A stretch of 64,000 nt of DNA. It comes from an uncultured Candidatus Saccharibacteria bacterium. GTDB taxonomy: Bacteria > Patescibacteriota > Minisyncoccia > UBA6257 > 2-01-FULL-56-20. Of the stretch, positions 8,252-52,655 are shown piece by piece. Within the stretch, counting starts at the first letter, position 1. Each line of letters begins with the position of its first letter. The position numbers were made by a program, and so were the translations under genes. The notes under the pieces are model-generated. The model was not told the DNA's origin. It did not search any database and saw only the letters and a program-made list of their open reading frames with translations. The stretch is taken from assembly GCA_964387675.1 (NCBI GenBank), contig CAYLWL010000001.1, positions 1,099 to 65,098 of the forward strand, in the 5' to 3' direction.

Positions 8252-9023
8252 TCCACCCCGGCAAAAAAGCATAGCAGTATTGCAGTTCGTTCAACGCGAG
8301 AGCCGGAAGATAGTGCGGATAACTTTTCCTGTACCGTTTCATGACCACGAGCGACGCCTTCAGGTGCGGCTTGATTTTGGCAATCGACGTATTCACATTG
8401 CTCATTGTGTAGTAAGAAAAATACTCCGGGAAGTTATACAATTTTCCAACGAGTCCCATCTTGAGCCAAAAGTCCCGGTCGCCGGAATATCGCGTTGTTT
8501 CATCGTACCGGCCAACCTGTTCGCCAACCGCTCGCCGGAAAACGGTGGTGCTGTTCGCTATCGGATTCCCGAAGAGCATCCTCTCTCTTATTTCTTTGTC
8601 GGTTTCCGGCTTCAGGTAACGATACAATTCTTTTCCGGCCTCATTTACGACGACAACGCCGCCGCCGCAACCAACGTACTCTGGATTTTTTTCTAAAAAA
8701 TCTATCTGTCTTTTTAACTTGTCTTTGCCTATCCAAGCGTCGTCGTCGTCGATCATCGCCACATATTCGCCTTTCGCGACGTTCAGTCCTTTGTTATAGT
8801 TTTTGGAAATGCCGTCGTTTGTTTCGCTTCTCACATACACGATCCTCGGCTCTCTCTTTTGCCATTCACGCACCACGATCGGCGTCTCGTCGGTTGAGCC
8901 GTCGTCGGCAATAATAAGCTCCCAATCGCCGAAGCTCTGCATACGCACAGATTCGATCGCCGGGCCAAGTTTTTTGGCGCGGTTCCAGGTCGCCAGAAGA
9001 ATACTTACTTGAGGATTCGTCAT
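8196..9023 (-). CDS. Glycosyltransferase family 2
   Basis: VSILLATWNRAKKLGPAIESVRMQSF...LIIADDGSTDET...MIDDDD (DxD). Confidence 0.65.
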   Translation of the reverse strand: MTNPQVSILLATWNRAKKLGPAIESVRMQSFGDWELIIADDGSTDETPIVVREWQKREPRIVYVRSETNDGISKNYNKGLNVAKGEYVAMIDDDDAWIGKDKLKRQIDFLEKNPEYVGCGGGVVVVNEAGKELYRYLKPETDKEIRERMLFGNPIANSTTVFRRAVGEQVGRYDETTRYSGDRDFWLKMGLVGKLYNFPEYFSYYTMSNVNTSIAKIKPHLKASLVVMKRYRKSYPHYLPALALNELQYCYAFLPGWIKKAIHFPLARLKRLLVG

Positions 9024-13244: not shown

Positions 13245-13373
13245 CCCTCACCTTTCGAGGATTGCGCGGCGGCAATCTCGTTGATTTAATTTCCACGACT
13301 TTTTATTGCGGAATATCATTGTTTTGTTGGAGGCCTCGCCCAGAAGACATTAATCCTCGATAAGGTGAGGGAT
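13245..13373. repeat. MITE-like repeat family L2, copy A, with 21-bp terminal inverted repeats, abutting the hddA-like start codon
   Basis: atccctcacctttcgaggatt ... aatcctcgataaggtgagggat. It is about 95% identical to 23051-23179 in inverted orientation. Confidence 0.8.
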
Positions 13374-13461: not shown

Positions 13462-14403
13462 TCAGCCGAATAGTTTCTTTTTCAACTTATGCGTATTTCC
13501 GTGGCCAAGGAGTCCACGATATGAGGCGGAGGTTTCGTCAGACAGATTTTCACCCAATCGTCTGGCCATCCGCCGCCTTGTCGCGGCCCTCAAAGTCCGG
13601 TGATACGGAAAGTGAACCCAACCGAGGAAGTCGACGCCGGAGGCGAACGTTTTGATAGAAACTTTGTCAGGATGAAGTGATATGTGTAGCCGCGTCTCGA
13701 GAAAACCTGAAGTTTTCGGAATAATGCTTTCCAAGTATCGCTTATCCTCGTGTACAATCACAAAATCGTCGGCATAGCGAACGCAATGGCGAATCTTCAG
13801 CTTCCGCTTCAAGAACTGGTCGAACTCGTTCATGTAAATATTCACGAGGAGCTGGCTCGTGAGGTTGCCAAGCGGCAGGCCGACGCCCGGCTTGTCCTTT
13901 GTATGGAAGCTGTCAATGGTTTCGGCCAAGAGCCATAAAATATCGTTATCTTCGATGTACCGCTTCAAAATGTCTTTTAATGTTCCATGATCGATGCTCG
14001 CGAAAAATTTCCTGATGTCGCATTTAAGGATCCATGCCGTCCGCGCGTGATTGCGCGAGACGACCCTCGTATATTTCTTGAAACGATCCATCGCGCGGTA
14101 CGTGCCTTTGTCGTAGCGACAGGAATACGAATCGAAGATGAATTTCTTATCGAAATAGGGATACAAAATCCGGTAAATCGCGTGGTGCAGCAAGCGGTCG
14201 CGTACTTCGGCCTTGTGGATTTCACGCGGCTTCGGGTCGTTGATTTTGAATGGCCGGTACGGACCGTGCCGGTATGTTTTGTCCGATAATTCCCGGTGAA
14301 GCGCGAGGATATTGCCCGTAAGATTCAAAGAAAACAATGCAACATCTTTGCGTTTTCGCTTGCCGCGTAAAAATTCGCGCCACGCGGAAAGCAGATTTTC
14401 CAC
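13462..14403 (-). CDS. Diversity-generating retroelement (DGR) reverse transcriptase
   Basis: 313 aa. RT motifs 1-7, including YADDFVIV. Carries the DGR-specific motif GLPLGNLTSQLLVNIY where other RTs have QGxxxSP. The N-terminus LSAWREFLRGKRKRKDVALF is typical of Brt-like RTs. Confidence 0.85.
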   Translation of the reverse strand: MENLLSAWREFLRGKRKRKDVALFSLNLTGNILALHRELSDKTYRHGPYRPFKINDPKPREIHKAEVRDRLLHHAIYRILYPYFDKKFIFDSYSCRYDKGTYRAMDRFKKYTRVVSRNHARTAWILKCDIRKFFASIDHGTLKDILKRYIEDNDILWLLAETIDSFHTKDKPGVGLPLGNLTSQLLVNIYMNEFDQFLKRKLKIRHCVRYADDFVIVHEDKRYLESIIPKTSGFLETRLHISLHPDKVSIKTFASGVDFLGWVHFPYHRTLRAATRRRMARRLGENLSDETSASYRGLLGHGNTHKLKKKLFG

Positions 14404-14445
14404 GGAAATGATATCATGGAAATCATGACGCGGCCAGGCGATTCG

Positions 14446-14471
14446 TCTCTCTCTCTCTCTCTCTCTCTCTC
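14446..14471. repeat. (TC)13 dinucleotide microsatellite
   Basis: tctctctctctctctctctctctctc lies in the divergent intergenic region between the RT and the avd-like gene. Confidence 0.9.
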
Positions 14472-14510
14472 GATAAGGCCTCGATTCTCGCGAGAATCAA
14501 AGAGGGGTAT

Positions 14511-14834
14511 TTGTTTTGGATGAATCTTGTGCCGCATATTGCTAAGGGTACCCGATATACGCTCGGTGCGCGAATTGAAAATAAGTTTCTTGATCTTTTG
14601 GAACTGTCCTACGCCGCGTACTTCACGGAAAAAGAAAAGAAAGTGGAGAAAATTACGGAATGCGTCTTCATAACAGACATACTCAAGTTTTTGGTCTCCG
14701 TTGCGTGGGAAGGCGAGGTTATCTCCGACCACCAATGCGAAGGCATCGCGGTAAAACTGGAGGAGATCGGCAAAATGCTCGGCGGCTGGAAAAAGAGTTT
14801 GGGCAATCCCGAAAAGAAAAACCGCGCTCTCTGA
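14511..14834 (+). CDS. Avd-like four-helix-bundle accessory protein, on the opposite strand to the RT and target
   Basis: 107 aa, helical. The C-terminus LEEIGKMLGGWKKSL resembles the Avd C-terminus AEVGRILGSWIARV. It is adjacent to the TR. Confidence 0.5.
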   Translation: MFWMNLVPHIAKGTRYTLGARIENKFLDLLELSYAAYFTEKEKKVEKITECVFITDILKFLVSVAWEGEVISDHQCEGIAVKLEEIGKMLGGWKKSLGNPEKKNRAL

Positions 14835-14855
14835 ACGCGGAAAGAACGAACTTTC

Positions 14856-14982
14856 GGAGGCGGAAGACAAACTCATTGTCGGGATTCCACGTATTGCCCG
14901 GATTCGTCCAATTGTCGTTCAGCCACAGACCGTCTTCGTTTCGTTCCAAGTTGAAGACGTTCGGGTTGCCGTCACGATCGGT
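14856..14982 (-). repeat. DGR template repeat (TR)
   Basis: 127 bp that aligns with 15333-15459. About 18 mismatches, every one at a plus-strand T in TR, which is a sense-strand A. Encodes the Asn-rich sequence GLWLNDNWTNPGNTWNPDNEFVFRLRK. Confidence 0.85.
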
Positions 14983-15307
14983 TCTGTGCGCCGCGCCATC
15001 CGCGCCACTGCCCGTCTAAATAAAGAGACTGGGCTGTATTTTATATGGGAGCATGACTCCACCAGCGCAGCGCACCAAGTTGTTTCTTTTTTGTTGACAA
15101 CTATGCGAATCCTCTCCGTCAAGCCGTAACCGGACGGACTCTCAATATGCATATGCCGGAAGGGTCTCGAAAAACCGCCTGGCCCGAGCGAGGTCGAAGG
15201 CTAGCCGTCCGATATAACCCATCTGATTTAATAATAGCAAAAAATTACGGCGGGATACAAAAAGAATCAAAGGGTTAAAGCGCCAAAGTTTCAGAAACGC
15301 AAAGATT

Positions 15308-17212
15308 CTAAGTTTTCAAGTTTTTCAACTTGCGGAGGCGGAAGACAAACTCATCGTCGGGATCCCACGTATCGCCCGGACCCGTCCAAAGGCCGTACAG
15401 CCACAGACCGCCTCCGTACCGAGCCAAGTAGAAGACGTCCGGGTTGCCGTCACGATCGGCTATTTGTTTCATGCCAATGCGGAACCATTTATTTAGGGGT
15501 TGGTTTGCATATTTGAGCCGATAATGCGGTCCGGTTTCGGCTGGACAGAGTTCCAATCCCAATTCTTCGATGCGTTTGTAAACTTCGTCTGTTGTCGGGT
15601 ATTTGTCTTTGGGAAAACCGAGGTCGCCAACTTTGAGGCGGATGAGAATTTCTTCCTCTGATTTTTTGAGGACGGTGAAATCCTTGCTTTTCAACATATC
15701 CATCGCATAGTCCGAGATGTTGATCTTTTTCTCGCGCATTTCATTAATGAGCGTTTTGGCATCTTTACCGCCGATTTCCAGTTGTTCTTTGCGAATTCTG
15801 CCTTCGGGGAAGGAAGTGTAGACGTGTTCGATGCCATATCTCTGGACTTTGTCGAAGATGCCGGGGACGAGGGAGCCGACATAGGCCTTTGTGTCTTCTT
15901 TGATTTCGGATATGTCTCGTGCGATTTGATCTTTTTCGCACTCAAACACTACTGCCATGTCTTCTTCGGGATTTCTTTGAGAGCGGAGCTCCCTGACGCG
16001 GGGATCATTCGTTCCATAACCAAAGCTTTCTATGGGTGCGTTGATTTCGTAAAGAAAAATAAGGTCGTCTTTCGAGAGCGTTGCGCCTGTTCCTGTCTTT
16101 TTCTTGATCGCGGTTAATGTTTCCATATCGCTGGCCTTCTTTTCGTATTTCTGGCCGTCGGGATGAGCCGCAAGTTTTTCCTTGATTACGTTGTTGATAC
16201 GGGGATCGATGTGCTCGTCTTCGGCCACACCACGGACTTCGGAGATGATTCCACCTGCGCTTACGATCACCGCGCGCGGCACGGTTGGTTTGCCTTCTTT
16301 GTCAAGCGAGTAAAAAATTTCAAGATCGTTTCCTTGAAGATATCTTCGTGCCATAGACTCGCCTCGCAAGCACCAGCCAGTGCCATAAGGAGCGATCGAT
16401 TCTACAAGACGCATTGGGTCGGATCCTTGGGGATATGCTATCCACGTTCCCTCGGTAACCTTGAGTAGTTCTTCGGGTATGGGCTTGAACTCTTCGACGG
16501 CCAAGGCGTAGAGCTTGGCAAAGTTCTTTTGTTTGAGGAGTTGAAGAAAGCTTTGCTTGGTTGCTTCTTCTATGTCGTAGCCGAATTTGACGGGTTCGCC
16601 CCTCTCTTGCCGCTCAAACGATTCAAGCACGATGGCCAGGGCCTCGCGATTGAGGTCGGGAAAGGGAGCAATGGCCCCGCCGGTTCTCTCAGAAAAAGCT
16701 TTCTTTTTCTTGTCGTATCTACCCATACGCAAGATGCTGCGGAAAGCGAAGTATTTGAGATAGTCAGGATATTTGGCGTCATCTGACGCTAGATAATCGA
16801 CCCATTCGTCAAGAGAGTTCTTTTGGTCGGTAGTAATTGTTTCCGCGAGTTCTTTCCGTATATCGCCCGGTATTTCATCAAGGGGGCGGCCTTCTTCTTC
16901 GTGCCTCTTTTTTACGGATTCGAAGTAAGCTTCGGGAATGTCCTCTGGTTTGATGACGAACTGGTCATAGAGGGAGCGCTTCAGCGTCTCGAGATTTCTC
17001 TCTCCTCTTTCGAAACCTTCGTGACCCGCCAGTCGTGCTGGATGAATTACTGATTTTAGTCGGTCGAGATAATTTTGTATGCGGGCGTCTGCTCCTTCTA
17101 CTGTATCGAGCGTGAGCTTTTTCCCTGTCCGTTTTTCGGTACGCTTTGCAGCCCGTTCTACTTCGTGGCTTTTATGCAAGCCATATTTTTCTCTTAAGAA
17201 GCTCTTTTCCAT
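15308..17212 (-). CDS. DGR variable (target) protein with the VR at its C-terminus
   Basis: 634 aa. C-terminus ...RYGGGLWLYGLWTGPGDTWDPDDEFVFRLRKLKNLKT corresponds to the TR-encoded sequence. The N-terminal roughly 560 aa is uncharacterised. Confidence 0.8.
   Translation of the reverse strand: MEKSFLREKYGLHKSHEVERAAKRTEKRTGKKLTLDTVEGADARIQNYLDRLKSVIHPARLAGHEGFERGERNLETLKRSLYDQFVIKPEDIPEAYFESVKKRHEEEGRPLDEIPGDIRKELAETITTDQKNSLDEWVDYLASDDAKYPDYLKYFAFRSILRMGRYDKKKKAFSERTGGAIAPFPDLNREALAIVLESFERQERGEPVKFGYDIEEATKQSFLQLLKQKNFAKLYALAVEEFKPIPEELLKVTEGTWIAYPQGSDPMRLVESIAPYGTGWCLRGESMARRYLQGNDLEIFYSLDKEGKPTVPRAVIVSAGGIISEVRGVAEDEHIDPRINNVIKEKLAAHPDGQKYEKKASDMETLTAIKKKTGTGATLSKDDLIFLYEINAPIESFGYGTNDPRVRELRSQRNPEEDMAVVFECEKDQIARDISEIKEDTKAYVGSLVPGIFDKVQRYGIEHVYTSFPEGRIRKEQLEIGGKDAKTLINEMREKKINISDYAMDMLKSKDFTVLKKSEEEILIRLKVGDLGFPKDKYPTTDEVYKRIEELGLELCPAETGPHYRLKYANQPLNKWFRIGMKQIADRDGNPDVFYLARYGGGLWLYGLWTGPGDTWDPDDEFVFRLRKLKNLKT
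15333..15459 (-). repeat. DGR variable repeat (VR) with the IMH-like GC-rich 3' end
   Basis: It differs from the TR only where TR has A: TR Asn, Glu and Asp codons become Tyr, Leu, Gly, Asp and Ala. The shared 3' end GTCTTCCGCCTCC is identical to TR. Confidence 0.85.
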
Positions 17213-17255: not shown

Positions 17256-17849
17256 TCAAAACAGCGTCGCCATACTGCTTGCGAAACTTACCCTCATGAC
17301 TTCGCCGGTCATCTTGTTCGGAACCAAGAGCGACCTGTCTTTCTGGTAAAGATCATAGAGTTCTTTCGTTAGTTTCACGTCGTTCAAGCAATAGGATTTC
17401 AATTCTTCGATTTTTCCGTCCTTCCACAGACCGATCGCCTCCGAGCCGTGGCGATCTTTTTTCACGCCCAAGTTCGCCTCGGAAAGCTTGCTCAAGCTTA
17501 TCCTCTGCCCCACCATCCGCTCGATCTCTTCCGAAAGGTCCACGCGTTCTTTTCCCCAAATTCTTGGAGCGGAGGGTCCGAGTCGCTGAAAATGGAGGTT
17601 CAAAACCGGAACGTCGTAGCGGTTGATGCTGAATCCAACAATCCTGTCGCAACTATGAAAAATATCTGTCAGCTTTTCCAGTTCGTTTTCGGCAAAGCAG
17701 GAATATGTATCCTGCGCGTAGGAATAAACCCCGACAGCGGAAATTTTGAGCGCATCAAAATTATCCCAGCCGACATCAGGATCGGTAAAAAAGTTTTGCG
17801 TTTCGATGTCGAATACGAGGGTGTCCATTGTAGTAAATGCAAAGGTCAA
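17256..17849 (-). CDS. DEDDy-type 3'-5' exonuclease domain protein
   Basis: Exo I motif VFDIETQNF. Exo III motif YCLNDVKLTKELYD. Confidence 0.55.
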   Translation of the reverse strand: MTFAFTTMDTLVFDIETQNFFTDPDVGWDNFDALKISAVGVYSYAQDTYSCFAENELEKLTDIFHSCDRIVGFSINRYDVPVLNLHFQRLGPSAPRIWGKERVDLSEEIERMVGQRISLSKLSEANLGVKKDRHGSEAIGLWKDGKIEELKSYCLNDVKLTKELYDLYQKDRSLLVPNKMTGEVMRVSFASSMATLF

Positions 17850-17884: not shown

Positions 17885-18256
17885 TTACCTTTTGCCCTTA
17901 AGAGTTAGTACGCTGGATCCGATTATCTTGGAAATTTCTTCAGCTTCCCGGTAAAGGGGTGCTGCCGCAGAACCGATCTCCGGCTTACTTTCTTGCACGA
18001 CAGTCAACCAATACTTAGTTTCGTTTGCAGATTTCAGCGCTATCTCAAAAAATTTGATGTAATCTCTTCTTGAGCTTGAAGATTTAGCTTCGGTAACGTT
18101 CGCGCCGACAGAACTAGCACTCCTGATTAATTGGTCGCTAAGCGACCACAAACTTCTATGCACGCCCAACTTTTCGCAAAAAGATATAATATCTACCGAA
18201 AACCGAATTAATCTCTTAGTAAAATCCTCTTTAAATTTTGCTTTTTCATTTTGCAT
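17885..18256 (-). CDS. Four-helix-bundle protein (23S-rRNA-IVS / Avd family)
   Basis: SDQLIRSASSVGANVTEAKSSSSRRDYIKFFEIALKSANETKYWL matches the family consensus (SQ..R...SI..NIAEG ... F..iA.gS..E). Confidence 0.7.
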   Translation of the reverse strand: MQNEKAKFKEDFTKRLIRFSVDIISFCEKLGVHRSLWSLSDQLIRSASSVGANVTEAKSSSSRRDYIKFFEIALKSANETKYWLTVVQESKPEIGSAAAPLYREAEEISKIIGSSVLTLKGKR

Positions 18257-18281: not shown

Positions 18282-18761
18282 TCAAACGTGCCTGTCGGCC
18301 ACGTTCGACGCCGCGTAACTCTCCGGCTTCGTTTTCGGCTCGAAGTTATTTGCCCGAATGATGGAAACCACCTCCTGAATCATTTGCTTCGTCGGGCCGT
18401 TCTCGCCGATGTCGGCGTGAATTTCGAAAGAAAAAACCGGGAGGTCAAACTTTTTGAGTTCCGAAAGCACTTCTTTCGCGATATCGAGCGATACCAAAAC
18501 CTCGCGTATGATCCTGTCGCGGAGCGTGTGCATTTTGTCGAGTTCGAATCTTCGCCAAAAATACCTGCCGCCGTTCCCGATCCGGTGCACCACAACGGCC
18601 GTAACGAAATCGGCCCGGTTGCCGCTCAAAAGCTCCGAATCGGTGCCGATGGTCACTTTGTACTTTCTCAAGGGTTCCGTTCGCATGAACGCGATAACCT
18701 CGGCGACCACTTCGGGAACCGTGAGGCGCAATCCCAATGAACTGTGAAGAAATTCGGGCAT
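18282..18761 (-). CDS. DUF458/YkuK-like RNase H-fold protein
   Basis: MPEFLHSS...KVTIGTDSE...FVTAVVVH pattern. The first ATG of the ORF (18803) may not be the true start. Confidence 0.45.
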   Translation of the reverse strand: MPEFLHSSLGLRLTVPEVVAEVIAFMRTEPLRKYKVTIGTDSELLSGNRADFVTAVVVHRIGNGGRYFWRRFELDKMHTLRDRIIREVLVSLDIAKEVLSELKKFDLPVFSFEIHADIGENGPTKQMIQEVVSIIRANNFEPKTKPESYAASNVADRHV

Positions 18762-18863
18762 GAATATTGTGGTAATAGTATGTTTTGCTTGACAAAATGT
18801 CAAACTCCTCTTGCGTAAAAAAAGATTATCTGGTAGTATGCCATTAGCTTTTATGAACGGTCA

Positions 18864-32960: not shown

Positions 32961-33881
32961 ATGGCAGAAGTCGACAAACTCCTCCACGATTACCTCAACT
33001 ATCTCGAAATAGAGAGAAACCGTTCGCCGAAGACGCGCGAAAACTACGAGCGCTATCTCAAGGAATTTTTGAAGTTCTCCGGGGCTAAATCCCCCAACGA
33101 TATTACCGAGGACGCCGTCCGGGAATTCCGCCTAGCCATGGCTAGGCCTAAGTTCCATGGAAAAAACCTCAAAAAAATAACCCAGAGCTATTATGTCATC
33201 GCCCTGCGGAACTTTTTGAAGTATCTCGCGAGGCGCGACATAAAAACGCTCGCCCCCGAAAAAATAGAACTTCCCAAAATCCCCGATCGGCAGATAGAAA
33301 TTCTGGACTACAAAGATTTAGAACGATTGATGCAATCCCCCAGAGGGAATAGCTTGAGAGATCTTCGCGACAAGGCGATTCTCGAACTGTTCTTCTCGAC
33401 GGGGCTCCGGCTCTCCGAACTCTGCTCGCTCGAGAGATACCTGGATCTCGCCCGCGGCGAAGTGAGTGTCCGCGGCAAAGGAGAAAAGTTGCGGGTGGTG
33501 TTTCTCTCCGACGGCGCGAAAAGGGCAATCAAAAATTATCTCGACAAAAGGACGGACGCGGAAGAGTCGCTTTTCGTGAGTTTGGCGAAAGGGTCAAGGG
33601 TCAAGGGTCAAGGGTCAAGGGTTATCGGCCCGATCACGCCGCGGGCGGTGCAACGAGTGGTGGAACGCCGCGCGCGCGAAGCCGGCATTGCGAAAAAAAT
33701 CCACGCGCACCAACTAAGGCATAGCTTCGCGACAGACCTTTTGATAAACGGCGCGGATATCCGCTCCGTGCAAGAACTGCTCGGCCACTCGAACATATCA
33801 ACGACGCAAGTATACACCCACCTCACCAACAAAGAATTGCGCGAGGTGCACAAGGCGTTTCACGCGAGACGAAGAAAATAG
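32961..33881 (+). CDS. Tyrosine recombinase XerC/XerD-like
   Basis: Catalytic residues R...HxxR...Y (HQLRHSFATDLL...GHSNISTTQVYTH). Confidence 0.8.
   Translation: MAEVDKLLHDYLNYLEIERNRSPKTRENYERYLKEFLKFSGAKSPNDITEDAVREFRLAMARPKFHGKNLKKITQSYYVIALRNFLKYLARRDIKTLAPEKIELPKIPDRQIEILDYKDLERLMQSPRGNSLRDLRDKAILELFFSTGLRLSELCSLERYLDLARGEVSVRGKGEKLRVVFLSDGAKRAIKNYLDKRTDAEESLFVSLAKGSRVKGQGSRVIGPITPRAVQRVVERRAREAGIAKKIHAHQLRHSFATDLLINGADIRSVQELLGHSNISTTQVYTHLTNKELREVHKAFHARRRK
33592..33623 (+). repeat. GGGTCAAG x4 tandem octamer inside the xerC/D-like CDS
   Basis: Read directly. It encodes KGSRVKGQGSRV. The unit length is not a multiple of 3. Confidence 0.9.
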
Positions 33882-51416: not shown

Positions 51417-52655
51417 ATGCGCGACAAAGTATTAGAAAGCTTAATCAAAAAGGAAATCGGGCGTCAGAAGGAAACGCTCGACTTGATTCCGTCGGAAAAC
51501 ATCGCCTCGCCCGCTGTTTTGCGCGCGCTCGGCTCGCCGCTCGCCAATAAATATTCCGAAGGGTATCCGAAGAAAAGATACTATGCGGGTAATTCCGTTA
51601 TTGACGAGATTGAATTGCTGGCGCAAGAGCGGGCCCGAAAAGTTTTCCGGCTTGGTAAAAACTGGCACGTGAACGTCCAGCCATATTCCGGCTCTCCGGC
51701 GAATATGGCTGTCTATTTCGCGCTTCTGAAACCGGGTGACAAGATTATGGGAATGAGTTTGCCGTTTGGGGGGCACCTCACGCATGGATGGCGAGCCAAT
51801 TTTTCGGGGCAGCTCTATGCGTCGATACAATACAAGCTCAAGCAGGATGGTTTTCTGGACTACAAAGAAATCTACCGCATGGCCAAGAAAGAGAAACCAA
51901 AAATCATCGTCGCCGGCGCGACTGCGTATCCAAGAATCTTCGACTTCAAAAAACTCGGCGGCATCGCAAGGAATGTCGGCGCGTACTTTCTTGCGGATAT
52001 TTCGCATATCGCGGGACTCGTCGCCGCGGGCGCGCATCCATCGCCATTCCCCTACGCCGACGTGGTGACCACAACAACCCACAAAACTCTCCGCGGGCCG
52101 AGAGGGGCGATTATATTTAGCAAAGAGCAAAGAGCAAAGAGCAAAGAGCAAGTGGTAACGATTGCGGAGGCGATAGATAAAGCTGTTTTTCCCGGACTCC
52201 AGGGCGGGCCGCACGATAATCAGACTGCGGCAATCGCCACGGCGCTTTTCGAAGCGAACACAACACAATTCAAAAAGTACGGACGCCAAACCGTGAAAAA
52301 CGCCAAAGTGCTCGCTCGCGAACTCACGCGGCTCGGATTCAACCTCGTAAGCGGCGGCACGGACAATCACTTGATACTTATCGACCTGACAAATTTGGGC
52401 ATCTCCGGCCGGGAGGCGCAAGATCGCCTTGAGGCGAGCGGAATAATAACAAACAGGAATGCCGTGCCCTACGACACGCGCTCGCCGTTCGATCCATCGG
52501 GAATCCGCATCGGCACGCCGGCCCTCACCACGCGCGGGATGAAGGAGAGAGAAATGAGAGAAGTCGCGGAGTTGATTTCTGACATACTCATACGGCGCAA
52601 AGTAACGAGCGTCGCAGTGCGGCAGCTTTGCAGACAATTCCCGCTTCCGTATTAA
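51417..52655 (+). CDS. glyA: Serine hydroxymethyltransferase
   Basis: PLP-lysine region TTTHKTLRGPRG, and SHMT N-terminal motifs. Confidence 0.9.
   Translation: MRDKVLESLIKKEIGRQKETLDLIPSENIASPAVLRALGSPLANKYSEGYPKKRYYAGNSVIDEIELLAQERARKVFRLGKNWHVNVQPYSGSPANMAVYFALLKPGDKIMGMSLPFGGHLTHGWRANFSGQLYASIQYKLKQDGFLDYKEIYRMAKKEKPKIIVAGATAYPRIFDFKKLGGIARNVGAYFLADISHIAGLVAAGAHPSPFPYADVVTTTTHKTLRGPRGAIIFSKEQRAKSKEQVVTIAEAIDKAVFPGLQGGPHDNQTAAIATALFEANTTQFKKYGRQTVKNAKVLARELTRLGFNLVSGGTDNHLILIDLTNLGISGREAQDRLEASGIITNRNAVPYDTRSPFDPSGIRIGTPALTTRGMKEREMREVAELISDILIRRKVTSVAVRQLCRQFPLPY
52120..52147 (+). repeat. GCAAAGA x4 tandem heptad inside glyA
   Basis: Read directly. It encodes the KEQRAKSKEQ insert. The unit length is not a multiple of 3. 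Confidence 0.9.

Follow-up and report, generated by a model that had tools for sequence, protein, structure and literature searches.

According to the searched text of Wu et al. (2018, PMC5758913), 90% of the DGRs of CPR bacteria follow Architecture B3, in which the order is TR-(avd)-RT and avd lies on the reverse strand. The DGR of phage BPP-1 has the order mtd-VR, avd, TR, brt (structures 4DWL and 8UB7); in that phage avd sits upstream of TR on the same strand, and the spacer between TR and brt is a non-coding RNA. The locus described in this study is part of a window of 64,000 nucleotides, which is the whole stretch of DNA that was analysed. As far as the searched text describes Architecture B3, the locus is identical to it in order and orientation, and it shares the CPR host: target gene with variable repeat (VR), template repeat (TR) and RT are on one strand, and avd is positioned between TR and RT on the other. 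A first-pass annotation had called this layout non-canonical, which is true only in comparison with phage BPP-1, as TR-(avd)-RT is the already described Architecture B3. The individual elements were found where that annotation had placed them (Table 1). RT, TR, VR and target all lie on the minus strand, the Avd-like ORF on the plus strand is divergent from the RT, the TR lies on the opposite strand just 3' of this ORF, 15 nt past the avd stop codon, and a 26-nt TC repeat is located between the annotated ORFs. RT and avd are divergent, and the B3 order is kept, in all 150 related loci that hold both genes.

Table 1. Coordinates of the features of the DGR locus in the window
Feature	Position	Strand	Remarks
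DGR RT body, as annotated	13462-14403	minus	313 aa from GTG 14403; Pfam RVT_1, 71 bits
RT N-terminal residues RIAWPRHDFHDIIS	14404-14445	minus	upstream of annotated start, without a start codon of their own
Extended -10-like element TGATATCAT	14409-14417	plus	7 nt upstream of avd ATG; overlaps RT codons for 'DII'
Putative start ATG of full-length Avd	14425-14427	plus	MTRPGDS...; opposite a His codon (CAT) of RT
Antisense overlap between avd (plus) and RT (minus) at their 5' coding ends	14425-14537		113 nt; codons in exact antiparallel register
(TC)13 simple-sequence repeat	14446-14471		26 nt, perfect (TRF)
Avd body	14484-14834	plus	four-helix bundle; helix 1 = residues 25-42; basic C-terminus NPEKKNRAL
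Avd-like ORF as first flagged	14511-14834	plus	107 aa from TTG
GenBank Avd	from ATG 14520	plus	104 aa; 100% identical GenBank protein
Putative start ATG of full-length RT	14535-14537	minus	MRHKIHPKQIPLFDSRENRGLIE-(RE)n-RIAWPRHDF...; antisense to Avd His42 (CAT)
Hairpin CCGCG...CGCGG, then UUUUUCUUUU	14840->14811	minus	directly 3' of TR; terminator scan
Template repeat (TR)	14849-14988	minus	repeat comparison with VR
DGR target gene	15308-17212	minus	634-aa ORF; VR in last 55 codons
Variable repeat (VR)	15327-15466	minus	at 3' end of target gene

The DGR cassette and its Avd protein

TR and VR share 85% identity. On the minus strand, 19 of the 21 differences are changes from a TR adenine to any nucleotide in the VR, and the remaining two sit at the 5' edge of the homology. 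The VR encodes the C-terminus of the target protein. With a DGR-type RT, a TR/VR pair marked by adenine-specific differences and a target gene that ends in the VR on its 3' side, the cassette is a DGR of a CPR (Patescibacteria) bacterium and belongs to the known TR-(avd)-RT type. The adenine-specific differences are shared with the DGR of BPP-1, as are an RT that is homologous to bRT over its whole length and an Avd with the 4DWL fold. Unlike in BPP-1, avd is inverted between TR and RT, and the equivalent of the non-coding spacer is antisense avd; moreover, RT and Avd appear to carry extra N-terminal leaders that cross the repeat, and a terminator-like hairpin lies directly 3' of the TR. The target protein yielded no Pfam domain. 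Relatives of its gene adjoin the cassette in most related loci (tblastn matches in 130 loci, or 131 with the window), and these matches mostly cover the N-terminal part. The 64-kb window contains no further copy of TR or VR and no dinucleotide array other than (TC)13, and no Rfam family was matched between positions 13300 and 15600.

The plus-strand ORF scored 54.3 bits against Pfam bAvd (PF22296), above the cut-off of 40, and 57.8-58.9 bits against the NCBIfam Avd equivalog NF033474, below the cut-off of 80. The NCBIfam profile was matched from position 3 when the upstream codons were added. A sequence search of the ORF against PDB gave no match, and a fold search was needed to find one. The AF2 model (pLDDT 91.2) consists of four helices (2-18, 21-47, 50-76 and 82-107), and its top Foldseek match was Avd 4DWL (chain 4DWL_C, TM 0.82/0.86, rmsd 1.7 A, 109 columns). 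The predicted structure is the four-helix bundle expected of an Avd, which bears out the tentative assignment made in the first pass. The ORF is therefore a genuine Avd, and it belongs to a divergent CPR subfamily. The annotated Avd starts (residue 34 or 37) fall inside helix 1, and the annotated protein of 104 or 107 aa is an N-terminally truncated reading that lacks more than half of this helix. Such a short protein would lack most of helix 1 in a fold that matches 4DWL over its whole length, which favours the longer reading.

Two other ORFs were considered and discarded. A four-helix-bundle gene at 17885-18256 (PF05635/TIGR02436), a candidate for an Avd on the same strand, belongs to the 23S-IVP family and not to bAvd; together with its RNase H-like neighbours it recurs in no related locus and was rejected as the real Avd. 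A minus-strand ORF of 183 aa (14325-14876), antisense to avd, matched no family, and its only meaningful part is the RT leader downstream of ATG 14537.

The 5' ends of avd and RT

The 107-nt spacer between RT and avd (14404-14510) had been regarded as an intergenic promoter region, a view that was not confirmed, since homology to Avd and to bRT extends into this stretch from either side as far as the repeat. The best PDB match of the RT was Bordetella bRT (8UB7_A; HMMER, E=1e-44, residues 10-304). Residue 10 of the RT aligns with residue 10 of bRT, which places about 14 bRT-homologous N-terminal residues upstream of GTG 14403. On the avd side, full-length homologues start with M-T/A-R/K-P...(SL)n and read on into D[KN]AS-ILxRIKEGY. 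The tract itself codes for (Ser-Leu)n in avd and for (Glu-Arg)n in RT. Conservation was assessed among related loci with an Avd identity of at least 58%, comprising 133 unique species-level loci. Between tract and body, 131 of 131 loci have an Avd frame free of stop codons. All 133 loci carry an ATG upstream of the tract, which in 129 of them is codon-aligned with the RT frame. For Avd His42, 105 loci use CAT and one uses CAC, compared with a CAT background of 61% for RT bodies and 42% for Avd bodies (p about 1e-21). Loci that are in frame have an ATG at a distance of 38-46 codons upstream of RT residue 1. The entropy at Avd wobble sites is 0.43 in codons 25-42 versus 0.81 elsewhere (p=7e-7), and this constraint has a sharp boundary at codon 42, i.e. 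at the antisense ATG. Part of this reduction in entropy could stem from an RNA element or an internal ribosome-binding site and not from RT coding.

These conservation patterns indicate that both start codons are under selection at the nucleotide level, and we infer that translation starts at ATG 14425 and ATG 14537. As homology runs up to the tract on both sides and conserved ATGs are located beyond it, the tract would lie within two overlapping frames, and the supposed intergenic spacer is predicted to be coding on both strands. This would be a rare case in which the start regions of two proteins are coded on opposite strands of the same codons. It would also explain the N-terminally truncated annotation of many CPR genes, with Avd proteins of 104, 107 or 115 aa and RTs of about 313 aa. 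The gene order itself was already known; what is new here is the putative coding of the spacer on both strands with a repeat in the overlapping starts. The searched text of PMC5758913 makes no mention of a 5' overlap of RT and avd, of upstream start codons or of a repeat tract.

Signals for transcription were also analysed. The motif TGnTAnnnT of the extended -10-like element TGATATCAT occurs in 128 of the 133 loci, with the ATG 7 nt past the hexamer in 111 of them, and is a match to a consensus alone; it suggests a leaderless avd mRNA. Neither around the tract nor upstream of the TR did a sigma-70 scan detect a promoter pair. A 16-nt perfect palindrome (GATTCTCGCGAGAATC, 14483-14498) was considered as an operator and dismissed as a conserved element, since no more than 4 of 133 loci contain it. 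The hairpin 3' of the TR, which covers the avd stop codon and the EKKNR codons, is conserved in related loci with 15 stem variants, and its 5-bp core shows two covarying and no broken pairs in 23 sequences. Wobble entropy is zero in Avd codons 135-137, 0.29 in codon 134 and 0.12 in codon 138. The hairpin may act like a terminator or form part of the structure of the DGR RNA. A TR transcript running antisense through avd had been proposed; the conserved hairpin and the U-tract that directly follow the TR suggest instead that the TR RNA may end at this point.

The repeat tract and its possible role

A hypervariable repeat is found at the tract site in 132 of 133 loci, consisting of TC (104), poly-C (26), CA (1) or poly-G (1). 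The tracts are 8-48 nt long, and the short ones are the more stable ones. In 130 of 133 loci (TC and poly-C) the pyrimidine strand is the avd-sense strand; the two odd tracts are (CA)24 in locus L078 and poly-G9 in L089, where the purine strand is the avd-sense strand. The sole locus without a tract, L036, is in frame. The conserved feature thus seems to be a slippery tract and not a particular sequence. The loci are distributed uniformly over the three frames (39/48/46), which is also expected from a non-coding tract and counts against a switch. The frames of avd and RT are coupled, with 28 loci having both genes in frame, 76 having both out of frame and one being discordant. Among loci with tracts of up to 12 nt, 12 of 18 are in frame, against 19 of 86 among those with longer tracts (Fisher p=4e-4). 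The gene bodies are intact in 77 of 83 out-of-frame and 29 of 32 in-frame loci, which argues that OFF loci are not decaying. Variation within species was taken from a metagenome scan. In a trio with identical flanks, L097 carries (TC)8 and is ON, and L101 and L102 carry (TC)9 and (TC)7, respectively, and are OFF; L097 and L102 show no mismatch over 1955 nt. Altogether, five groups of related loci have flanks that are 100% identical and tracts that differ in length, and ON and OFF alleles occur within one lineage. Four poly-C locus pairs differ by 1-2 nt in the tract, and sequencing error could account for some of the poly-C length differences from one assembly to another.

The (TC)13 allele of the window places both genes out of frame and leaves stubs of 32 and 70 aa. 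When the tract was changed in silico to (TC)12 or (TC)15, an Avd of 135 or 137 aa and an RT of 357 or 359 aa were restored together; (TC)13 and (TC)14 gave stubs of 17-70 aa. As in a contingency locus, the tract is positioned between the putative start codon and the gene body, is polymorphic in length at strain level and changes the frame with its length. In the model that we propose, avd would be translated from ATG 14425 and RT from ATG 14537, their first 38 or so codons overlapping antisense, codon on codon, with the tract in the middle of the overlap between each start codon and its gene body. Because the tract separates each start from its body, tract length modulo 3 would set the frame of both genes. 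Both would be OFF in this genome, and a tract with one unit less or two units more would switch both ON. During replication, slipped-strand mispairing would then give rise to a minority of cells in which RT and Avd are made together and the target gene undergoes adenine mutagenesis; the other cells, whose OFF alleles presumably lack DGR activity, would keep the DGR silent. Such a switch would be heritable, reversible and stochastic, and would act as a master control of targeted hypermutation. On the available sequence evidence the tract is probably a slipped-strand ON/OFF frame switch for RT and avd in a CPR DGR of known type. We also lean, slightly less firmly, towards the view that across CPR one hypermutable repeat in the RT/avd overlap governs DGR mutagenesis as a conserved stochastic master switch. 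Face-to-face overlapping transcription of two genes that need to be co-expressed is mechanistically awkward, which counts against the model.

The first-pass annotation had suggested that slippage of the tract could modulate the divergent promoters, and it is very likely that slippage is functionally relevant; the part of the suggestion that is not supported concerns the tuning of promoters. According to this reading the tract lies in a bidirectional promoter and adjusts RT and avd transcription by geometry, as the (TA)n repeat of hifA/hifB does. The genes are indeed divergent, the tract is located between the annotated ORFs, a conserved extended -10-like element is nearby, and the uniform distribution over frames agrees with this reading. 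The tract is downstream of both conserved ATGs, however, and protein homology and wobble constraint run through the region. A promoter spacer of the hifA/hifB type has its repeat between -35 and -10 within a narrow range of lengths, for which tracts of 8-48 nt are unfit, and the promoter scan revealed no -35/-10 pair flanking the tract. The excess of short tracts in the in-frame state also speaks against promoter tuning, which is very unlikely. A homopyrimidine/homopurine tract could alternatively form H-DNA (non-B) or an RNA element that serves DGR mechanics or insulates face-to-face units, with an incidental effect on frame. The strand bias of the tracts and the other nucleotide-level constrained zones in avd are compatible with this idea, but (CA)24 and poly-G9 occupy the same site in L078 and L089, L036 has no tract at all, and the conserved ATGs, the frame coupling and the in-frame bias of short tracts would remain unexplained; we regard it as hardly plausible. 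That an assembly error caused the frameshift, or that the cassette is dead in this genome, is scarcely credible: short-read assembly is prone to errors in repeats and the window has both long ORFs interrupted, but about 94 of 133 independent assemblies show the same pattern and all three frames are seen among them, the bodies of out-of-frame loci are intact, and RT and avd of the window have no other defect next to a VR with 19 adenine-specific changes.

Two further explanations leave the DGR active irrespective of the tract allele. The tract may be a tolerated hypermutable linker, with Avd (TTG26, TTG34 or ATG37) and RT (GTG 14403 or a near-cognate codon) starting independently of it and the DGR being constitutively competent. 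Internal start-type codons are common: for Avd, TTG is found at Leu34 in 124 of 133 loci and at Leu26 in 58, and ATG37, preceded by an SD-like AAAGAGG, in 59; for RT, a start-type codon lies between tract and residue 1 in 45 of 131 loci, and in the window this codon is GTG 14403. The uniform frame distribution agrees with such a linker, and intact out-of-frame loci are expected if these are still expressed. Yet the codon aligned to GTG 14403 is start-type in only 43 of 131 loci (the RT residue-1 codon is a non-start in the other 88), and 86 of 131 contain no ATG, GTG or TTG in the RT frame between tract and residue 1. No start-type codon precedes Avd residue 34 in 74 of 133 loci, and starting at residue 34 removes most of helix 1. 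In addition, both distal ATGs are fixed (105:1 for CAT, 133/133 for ATG), and a neutral repeat would not last at one site in 132 of 133 species amid motif turnover. A tolerated linker is thus unlikely. Alternatively, transcriptional slippage or programmed frameshifting could act as a rheostat that yields a small, fixed in-frame fraction from any allele and keeps RT and Avd scarce. Both ORFs must cross the slippery tract, a uniform frame distribution would be costless if every allele gave some product, and the intactness of out-of-frame loci fits as well. Reports of RNA-polymerase slippage mostly concern long A/T runs and not (TC)n, which counts against this mechanism. The preference of short tracts for the in-frame state indicates that the DNA frame matters, and length polymorphism is directly seen at the DNA level. 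We consider a rheostat decidedly unlikely, and favour the frame switch.

To our knowledge, the control of DGR activity is largely unknown, and for the very abundant CPR elements nothing is known about it. If the tract is a frame switch, one localized hypermutation device would gate another, and a heritable, reversible minority would diversify the target protein. CPR bacteria could then restrict risky mutagenesis to a subpopulation without any regulator, a point of importance for organisms whose genomes are tiny and which have few transcription factors. The frame of the tract is worth recording in DGR-finding pipelines and activity surveys, and reconstitution of CPR DGRs as tools for protein evolution should use the long in-frame ORFs. 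The proposal can be checked in existing metagenomes by comparing tract allele and VR diversity on the same reads. A search of the DGR literature in combination with phase variation, slippage, repeats and Patescibacteria retrieved no published account of such a repeat switch; the main paper on CPR DGRs, Paul et al. 2017, may contain one.

Comparison with other repeat-switched systems

Contingency loci with intragenic repeats include opa of Neisseria (CTCTT), lic1 of H. influenzae (CAAT) and the poly-G genes of Campylobacter, and in Salmonella, mutL is switched by a 6-bp repeat. The locus in the window resembles contingency loci (reviewed in PMC11868660) in having a hypermutable repeat soon after the putative start codon whose length modulo 3 sets the frame, in its length polymorphism at strain level and in the presence of all frames among genomes. 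Unlike in these loci, one tract would gate two antisense-overlapping ORFs, and the gated function would be a mutagenesis machine and not a surface antigen. The hosts also differ, as these contingency loci belong to host-adapted pathogens whereas the window stems from environmental CPR bacteria.

As outlined in the searched text of PMC11868660, the fimbrial genes hifA and hifB of H. influenzae are controlled by a (TA)n repeat in overlapping promoters, where it alters the distance between -35 and -10 (van Ham et al. 1993). The similarity to the window is that one dinucleotide repeat between two divergent genes controls, or would control, both at once. However, the hifA/hifB switch, as described there, is transcriptional, whereas the tract of the window is downstream of both putative start codons and varies between 8 and 48 nt in related loci. 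Phasevarions, which depend on phase-variable mod methyltransferases (Srikhanta 2005, as listed in PMC11868660), and mutL share with the proposed switch that the repeat acts on a generator of variation or regulation and not on a structural gene. They differ from it in output: phasevarions and mutL affect methylation or mutation rate genome-wide, whereas the switch in the window would control targeted reverse-transcription mutagenesis of a single variable region.

Cassette layout and identity of the Avd protein

The diversity-generating retroelement (DGR) comprises genes for the reverse transcriptase (RT), the accessory protein Avd and a target protein, together with a template repeat (TR) and a variable repeat (VR). 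Nineteen of the 21 differences between TR and VR are template adenines replaced by variable nucleotides when read on the minus strand, the remaining two lie at the 5' edge of the homology, and no further TR copy occurs within the 64-kb window. The ORFs, the RVT_1 match, the TR/VR pair and the adenine-specific differences confirm that RT, TR, VR and target all lie on the minus strand, as stated in the first-pass annotation. Its description of the layout as non-canonical has to be abandoned. Wu et al. (PMC5758913) have already defined the order TR-(avd)-RT, in which avd lies on the reverse strand, as Architecture B3. Moreover, loci with relatives of the window Avd were collected, 80 from species-representative genomes and 80 from metagenomes; in 150 of the 150 that contain both genes, RT is located directly upstream of avd on the opposite strand, and this gene order is thus the norm for the clade. 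The hosts belong to many CPR lineages, among them Liptonbacteria, Giovannonibacteria, Sungbacteria, Moranbacteria, Uhrbacteria, Daviesbacteria, Levybacteria, Peribacteria and Berkelbacteria.

Features of the window around the DGR and further perfect repeats
Feature	Position	Strand	Remark
RT ORF	13462-14403	minus	313 aa; Pfam RVT_1
-10-like element	14409-14417		TGATATCAT
(TC)13 repeat	14446-14471		perfect dinucleotide array
Palindrome	14483-14498		16 nt, perfect; GATTCTCGCGAGAATC
Avd ORF	14511-14834	plus	Pfam bAvd, 54.3 bits
avd codons 70-73	14619-14630		GTGAAGTA in the window
GC hairpin	14840->14822	minus	CCGCGTTCAGAGAGCGCGG; directly 3' of TR
Hairpin and U-tract	14811-14840	minus	GC hairpin + UUUUUCUUUU
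TR	14849-14988	minus	85% identical to VR
DGR target ORF	15308-17212	minus	634 aa; no Pfam domain
VR	15327-15466	minus	3' end of target ORF
RNase H-like/exonuclease gene	17256-17849	minus
Second four-helix-bundle gene	17885-18256	minus	PF05635/TIGR02436
RNase H-like/exonuclease gene	18282-18803	minus
(AAGGGTC)x4.9	33589-33622		mid 306-aa ORF
(AGCAAAG)x4.7	52119-52151		mid 412-aa ORF

Relatives of the N-terminal part of the target protein were detected by tblastn in about 100 related loci, so the clade appears to travel with a single target-gene family of unknown function. One related locus (L025) harbors a second Avd-homologous stretch at 8382-8729, some 3.4 kb further downstream, which points to two DGR cassettes or a duplicated avd in that genome. 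In the window, the target is preceded on its own strand by a second four-helix-bundle gene (23S rRNA IVS protein family), with an RNase H-like/exonuclease gene on either side. As these three genes do not occur beside the DGR in any of the 160 related loci, they are probably not part of the cassette.

The Avd ORF exceeds the Pfam bAvd cut-off of 40 bits and scores 57.8 bits against the NCBIfam Avd equivalog, whose strict cut-off of 80 it does not reach. GenBank contains a 100% identical 104-aa protein from a Candidatus Liptonbacteria MAG, labelled four-helix-bundle protein. Sequence search alone yielded no PDB match for Avd. An AlphaFold2 model of residues 25-140 (36-sequence alignment; pLDDT 91.2) predicts helices at 2-18, 21-47, 50-76 and 82-107. 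Its best PDB match is the Bordetella phage Avd 4DWL (TM 0.82/0.86, rmsd 1.7 A, 109 columns), followed by the Avd chains of the DGR RNP cryo-EM structures 8UB7 and 8UBE and then by the related bundles 2GSC and 2RLD. The superposition of the model supports the earlier assignment of the plus-strand ORF as Avd. The annotated 104/107-aa protein begins at residue 34 or 37, within helix 1 (residues 25-42), and according to the model would be a three-helix remnant.

Antisense overlap of the RT and avd coding ends

The 107 nt between the RT and Avd ORFs had been regarded as an intergenic promoter spacer. This is contradicted by the homology of both reading frames, which extends to the tract. Upstream of TTG 14511 the avd frame stays open through the repeat, and with these codons included the NCBIfam Avd profile match reaches profile position 3, from Ile25 (ATT 14484) just past the tract. 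Since full-length homologues (126-137 aa) show the pattern M-T/A-R/K-P...(S-L)n...D-K/N-A-S-I-L-x-R-I-K-E-G-Y, the predicted full-length start is ATG 14425, reading MTRPGDS, and the TC tract would encode (Ser-Leu)n within avd. Upstream of GTG 14403 the RT frame reads RIAWPRHDFHDIIS. The HMMER alignment of the extended RT with bRT of Bordetella phage BPP-1 (8UB7_A) opens at residue 10 opposite residue 10; the RT homology thus starts at the tract, and a start at GTG 14403 would drop 14 homologous residues. The corresponding codon is not of start type in 88 of 131 related loci, and in 86 of the 131 the RT frame contains no ATG, GTG or TTG between the tract and this position. Wherever avd is in frame, the RT frame is likewise open across the tract, and nearly all of these loci possess an RT-frame ATG 38-46 codons upstream of RT residue 1; L024, L073 and L078, which have the longest intervals, show none within the 50 codons scanned. 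In the window this ATG (14537..14535) coincides exactly, on the opposite strand, with the CAT codon for Avd His42, an invariant residue.

Conservation of both ATGs and of the overlap was assessed in 133 unique loci. An ATG precedes the tract in all 133, and in 129 its codon register matches that of the antisense RT frame. The His42 codon is CAT in 105 cases and CAC in one, whereas CAT accounts for 61% of His codons in RT bodies and 42% elsewhere in avd (binomial p ~1e-21). At the synonymous third positions of avd, mean relative entropy is 0.43 in codons 25-42 versus 0.81 in other codons (Mann-Whitney p=7e-7). It is 0.08-0.10 at codon 42 and 0.84-0.99 from codon 44 on, which indicates that the additional constraint ends at the antisense RT ATG. 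Leu34 is encoded by TTG in 101 of 101 loci using a TTR codon; with TTA the RT frame would run into a stop. Between tract and body, the avd frame is free of stops in 131 of 131 loci. The palindrome just past the tract, inside the overlap, was rejected as a conserved operator: a palindrome of such length is present in just 4 of 133 related loci and is thus lineage-specific.

The extended -10 consensus TGnTAnnnT at the site of TGATATCAT is matched in 128 of 133 loci. In 111 of these 128 an ATG follows just 7 nt past the hexamer, which suggests a leaderless avd mRNA; the conservation is ambiguous because the element also encodes RT residues. Synonymous variation is also suppressed at avd codons 70-73, where the minus-strand consensus of related loci, GTAAAATA, which the window lacks, is -10-like and located about 80 nt upstream of the RT ATG. 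This patch might serve as an RT promoter or as an element of the DGR RNA.

At the other end of avd, the hairpin 3' of the TR carries the avd stop codon in its loop and is followed directly by a U-tract, TTTTTCTTTT, antisense to the Avd codons for E-K-K-N-R. The element is kept in related loci with 15 stem variants, and RNAalifold (23 sequences) identified a core of 5 bp in which two pairs covary and none is broken. The element resembles an intrinsic terminator that would end a discrete TR RNA, or it may be a structural component of the DGR RNA; in both cases it would argue against a TR transcript simply running antisense through avd, as previously proposed. Wobble entropy is zero at avd codons 135-137, 0.29 at 134 and 0.12 at 138. 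The near-invariant C-terminus NPEKKNR overlaps these codons and may therefore owe its constraint to the antisense RNA/terminator element no less than to the function of the protein.

Tract length and reading frame

(TC)13 is the only dinucleotide array in the window, and 132 of 133 loci harbor a simple repeat at this position. Of these repeats, 104 are (TC)n (8-42 nt) and 26 are poly-C (8-18 nt), the other two being (CA)24 and poly-G9. The sole locus without a repeat, L036, is in frame. The variety of motifs indicates that a slippery tract at this position is conserved, not a given sequence or peptide. Hybrid TC/C tracts such as CTCTCTCTCCCCCCCCCTCTCTCTC (L041, L052, L055, L073) resemble transitional forms, as if the motif at one site were turning over between (TC)n and poly-C. 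Elsewhere in the window, perfect heptanucleotide repeats are located within a 306-aa and a 412-aa ORF resembling, in translation, a tyrosine recombinase and a serine hydroxymethyltransferase, respectively; slippage by one 7-nt unit would shift the frame. Imperfect heptamer arrays occur at 1729, 11605, 32471, 51327 and 53732.

Start and body of avd are in the same frame (ON) in 39 loci and out of frame (OFF) in 48 and 46, a uniform distribution (chi-square p=0.6). The two genes, avd and RT, are coupled in state, being both in frame in 28 loci and both out in 76, with one discordant locus. Of 18 loci with tracts of up to 12 nt, for which greater stability is expected, 12 are in frame, versus 19 of 86 with longer TC tracts (Fisher p=4e-4). 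In the window, (TC)13 terminates Avd from ATG 14425 after 32 aa and RT from ATG 14537 after 70 aa. In silico, (TC)14 gives 17 and 38 aa, (TC)12 gives 135 and 357 aa, and (TC)15 gives 137 and 359 aa; the restored proteins begin MTRPGDSSLSLSLSLDKASILARIKEGY... and MRHKIHPKQIPLFDSRENRGLIERERERERRIAWPRHDFHDIISVENLL... The window genome carries a predicted OFF allele, one repeat unit from ON. In public annotations, proteins of the Avd family are 104 or 107 (P0002, P0003 and others for these two), 115 (P0030, P0038, P0063 and others) or 126-137 aa long. These length classes are a systematic annotation artefact, as the gene caller chooses an internal TTG or ATG when the repeat displaces the true start from frame.

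Tract length also varies between close relatives. Among 17 groups of loci with 100% identical flanks (about 190 and 213 nt), many of them probably from the same data set, five differ in the tract: (TC)8, (TC)9 and (TC)7 in L097, L101 and L102, C14 and C12 in L025 and L132, C9 and C8 in L034 and L159, C9 and C10 in L135 and L138, and C10 and C11 in L148 and L151. Over 1955 aligned nt, L097 and L102 are free of mismatches and the tract is the only gap; L148 and L151 differ over 5342 nt by one mismatch besides the tract. The L097 lineage includes one ON and two OFF alleles.

A putative switch and its alternatives

The observed gene anatomy, conservation, frame coupling and tract polymorphism can be joined in a model in which slipped-strand mispairing alters tract length. 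The tract separates each start codon from the body of its gene, and the codons of the two frames are in exact antiparallel register, so that one change in length would turn RT and Avd both on or both off. cDNA synthesis by the BPP-1 DGR needs both proteins, as in the RNP structures 8UB7 and 8UBE, and the tract would for this reason act as a stochastic, heritable and reversible master switch for mutagenic retrohoming.

The main alternative is initiation independent of the tract, at TTG26, TTG34 or ATG37 of Avd and at GTG 14403 of RT, or at an ATG at -12 in some loci, because a non-coding tract would also give uniform frames. Artefact or pseudogene formation is less likely; RT and Avd bodies are stop-free in 77 of 83 out-of-frame and 29 of 32 in-frame loci, and the out-of-frame loci are not decaying. 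Slippage at the RNA level and a role of the tract as non-B DNA are likewise less likely. The first-pass annotation had proposed that TC slippage modulates the divergent promoters. Such a promoter spacer of the hifA/hifB type, as cited in PMC11868660, does not fit a tract that ranges from 8 to 48 nt across loci and lies downstream of both ATGs.

In the accessible parts of the literature we found no account of a single repeat that lies in the antisense overlap of two 5' coding ends, gates both DGR proteins and is conserved across CPR, and an earlier description may exist. The components of the proposed switch are known separately, namely the DGR itself, the B3 layout and repeat-mediated phase variation.
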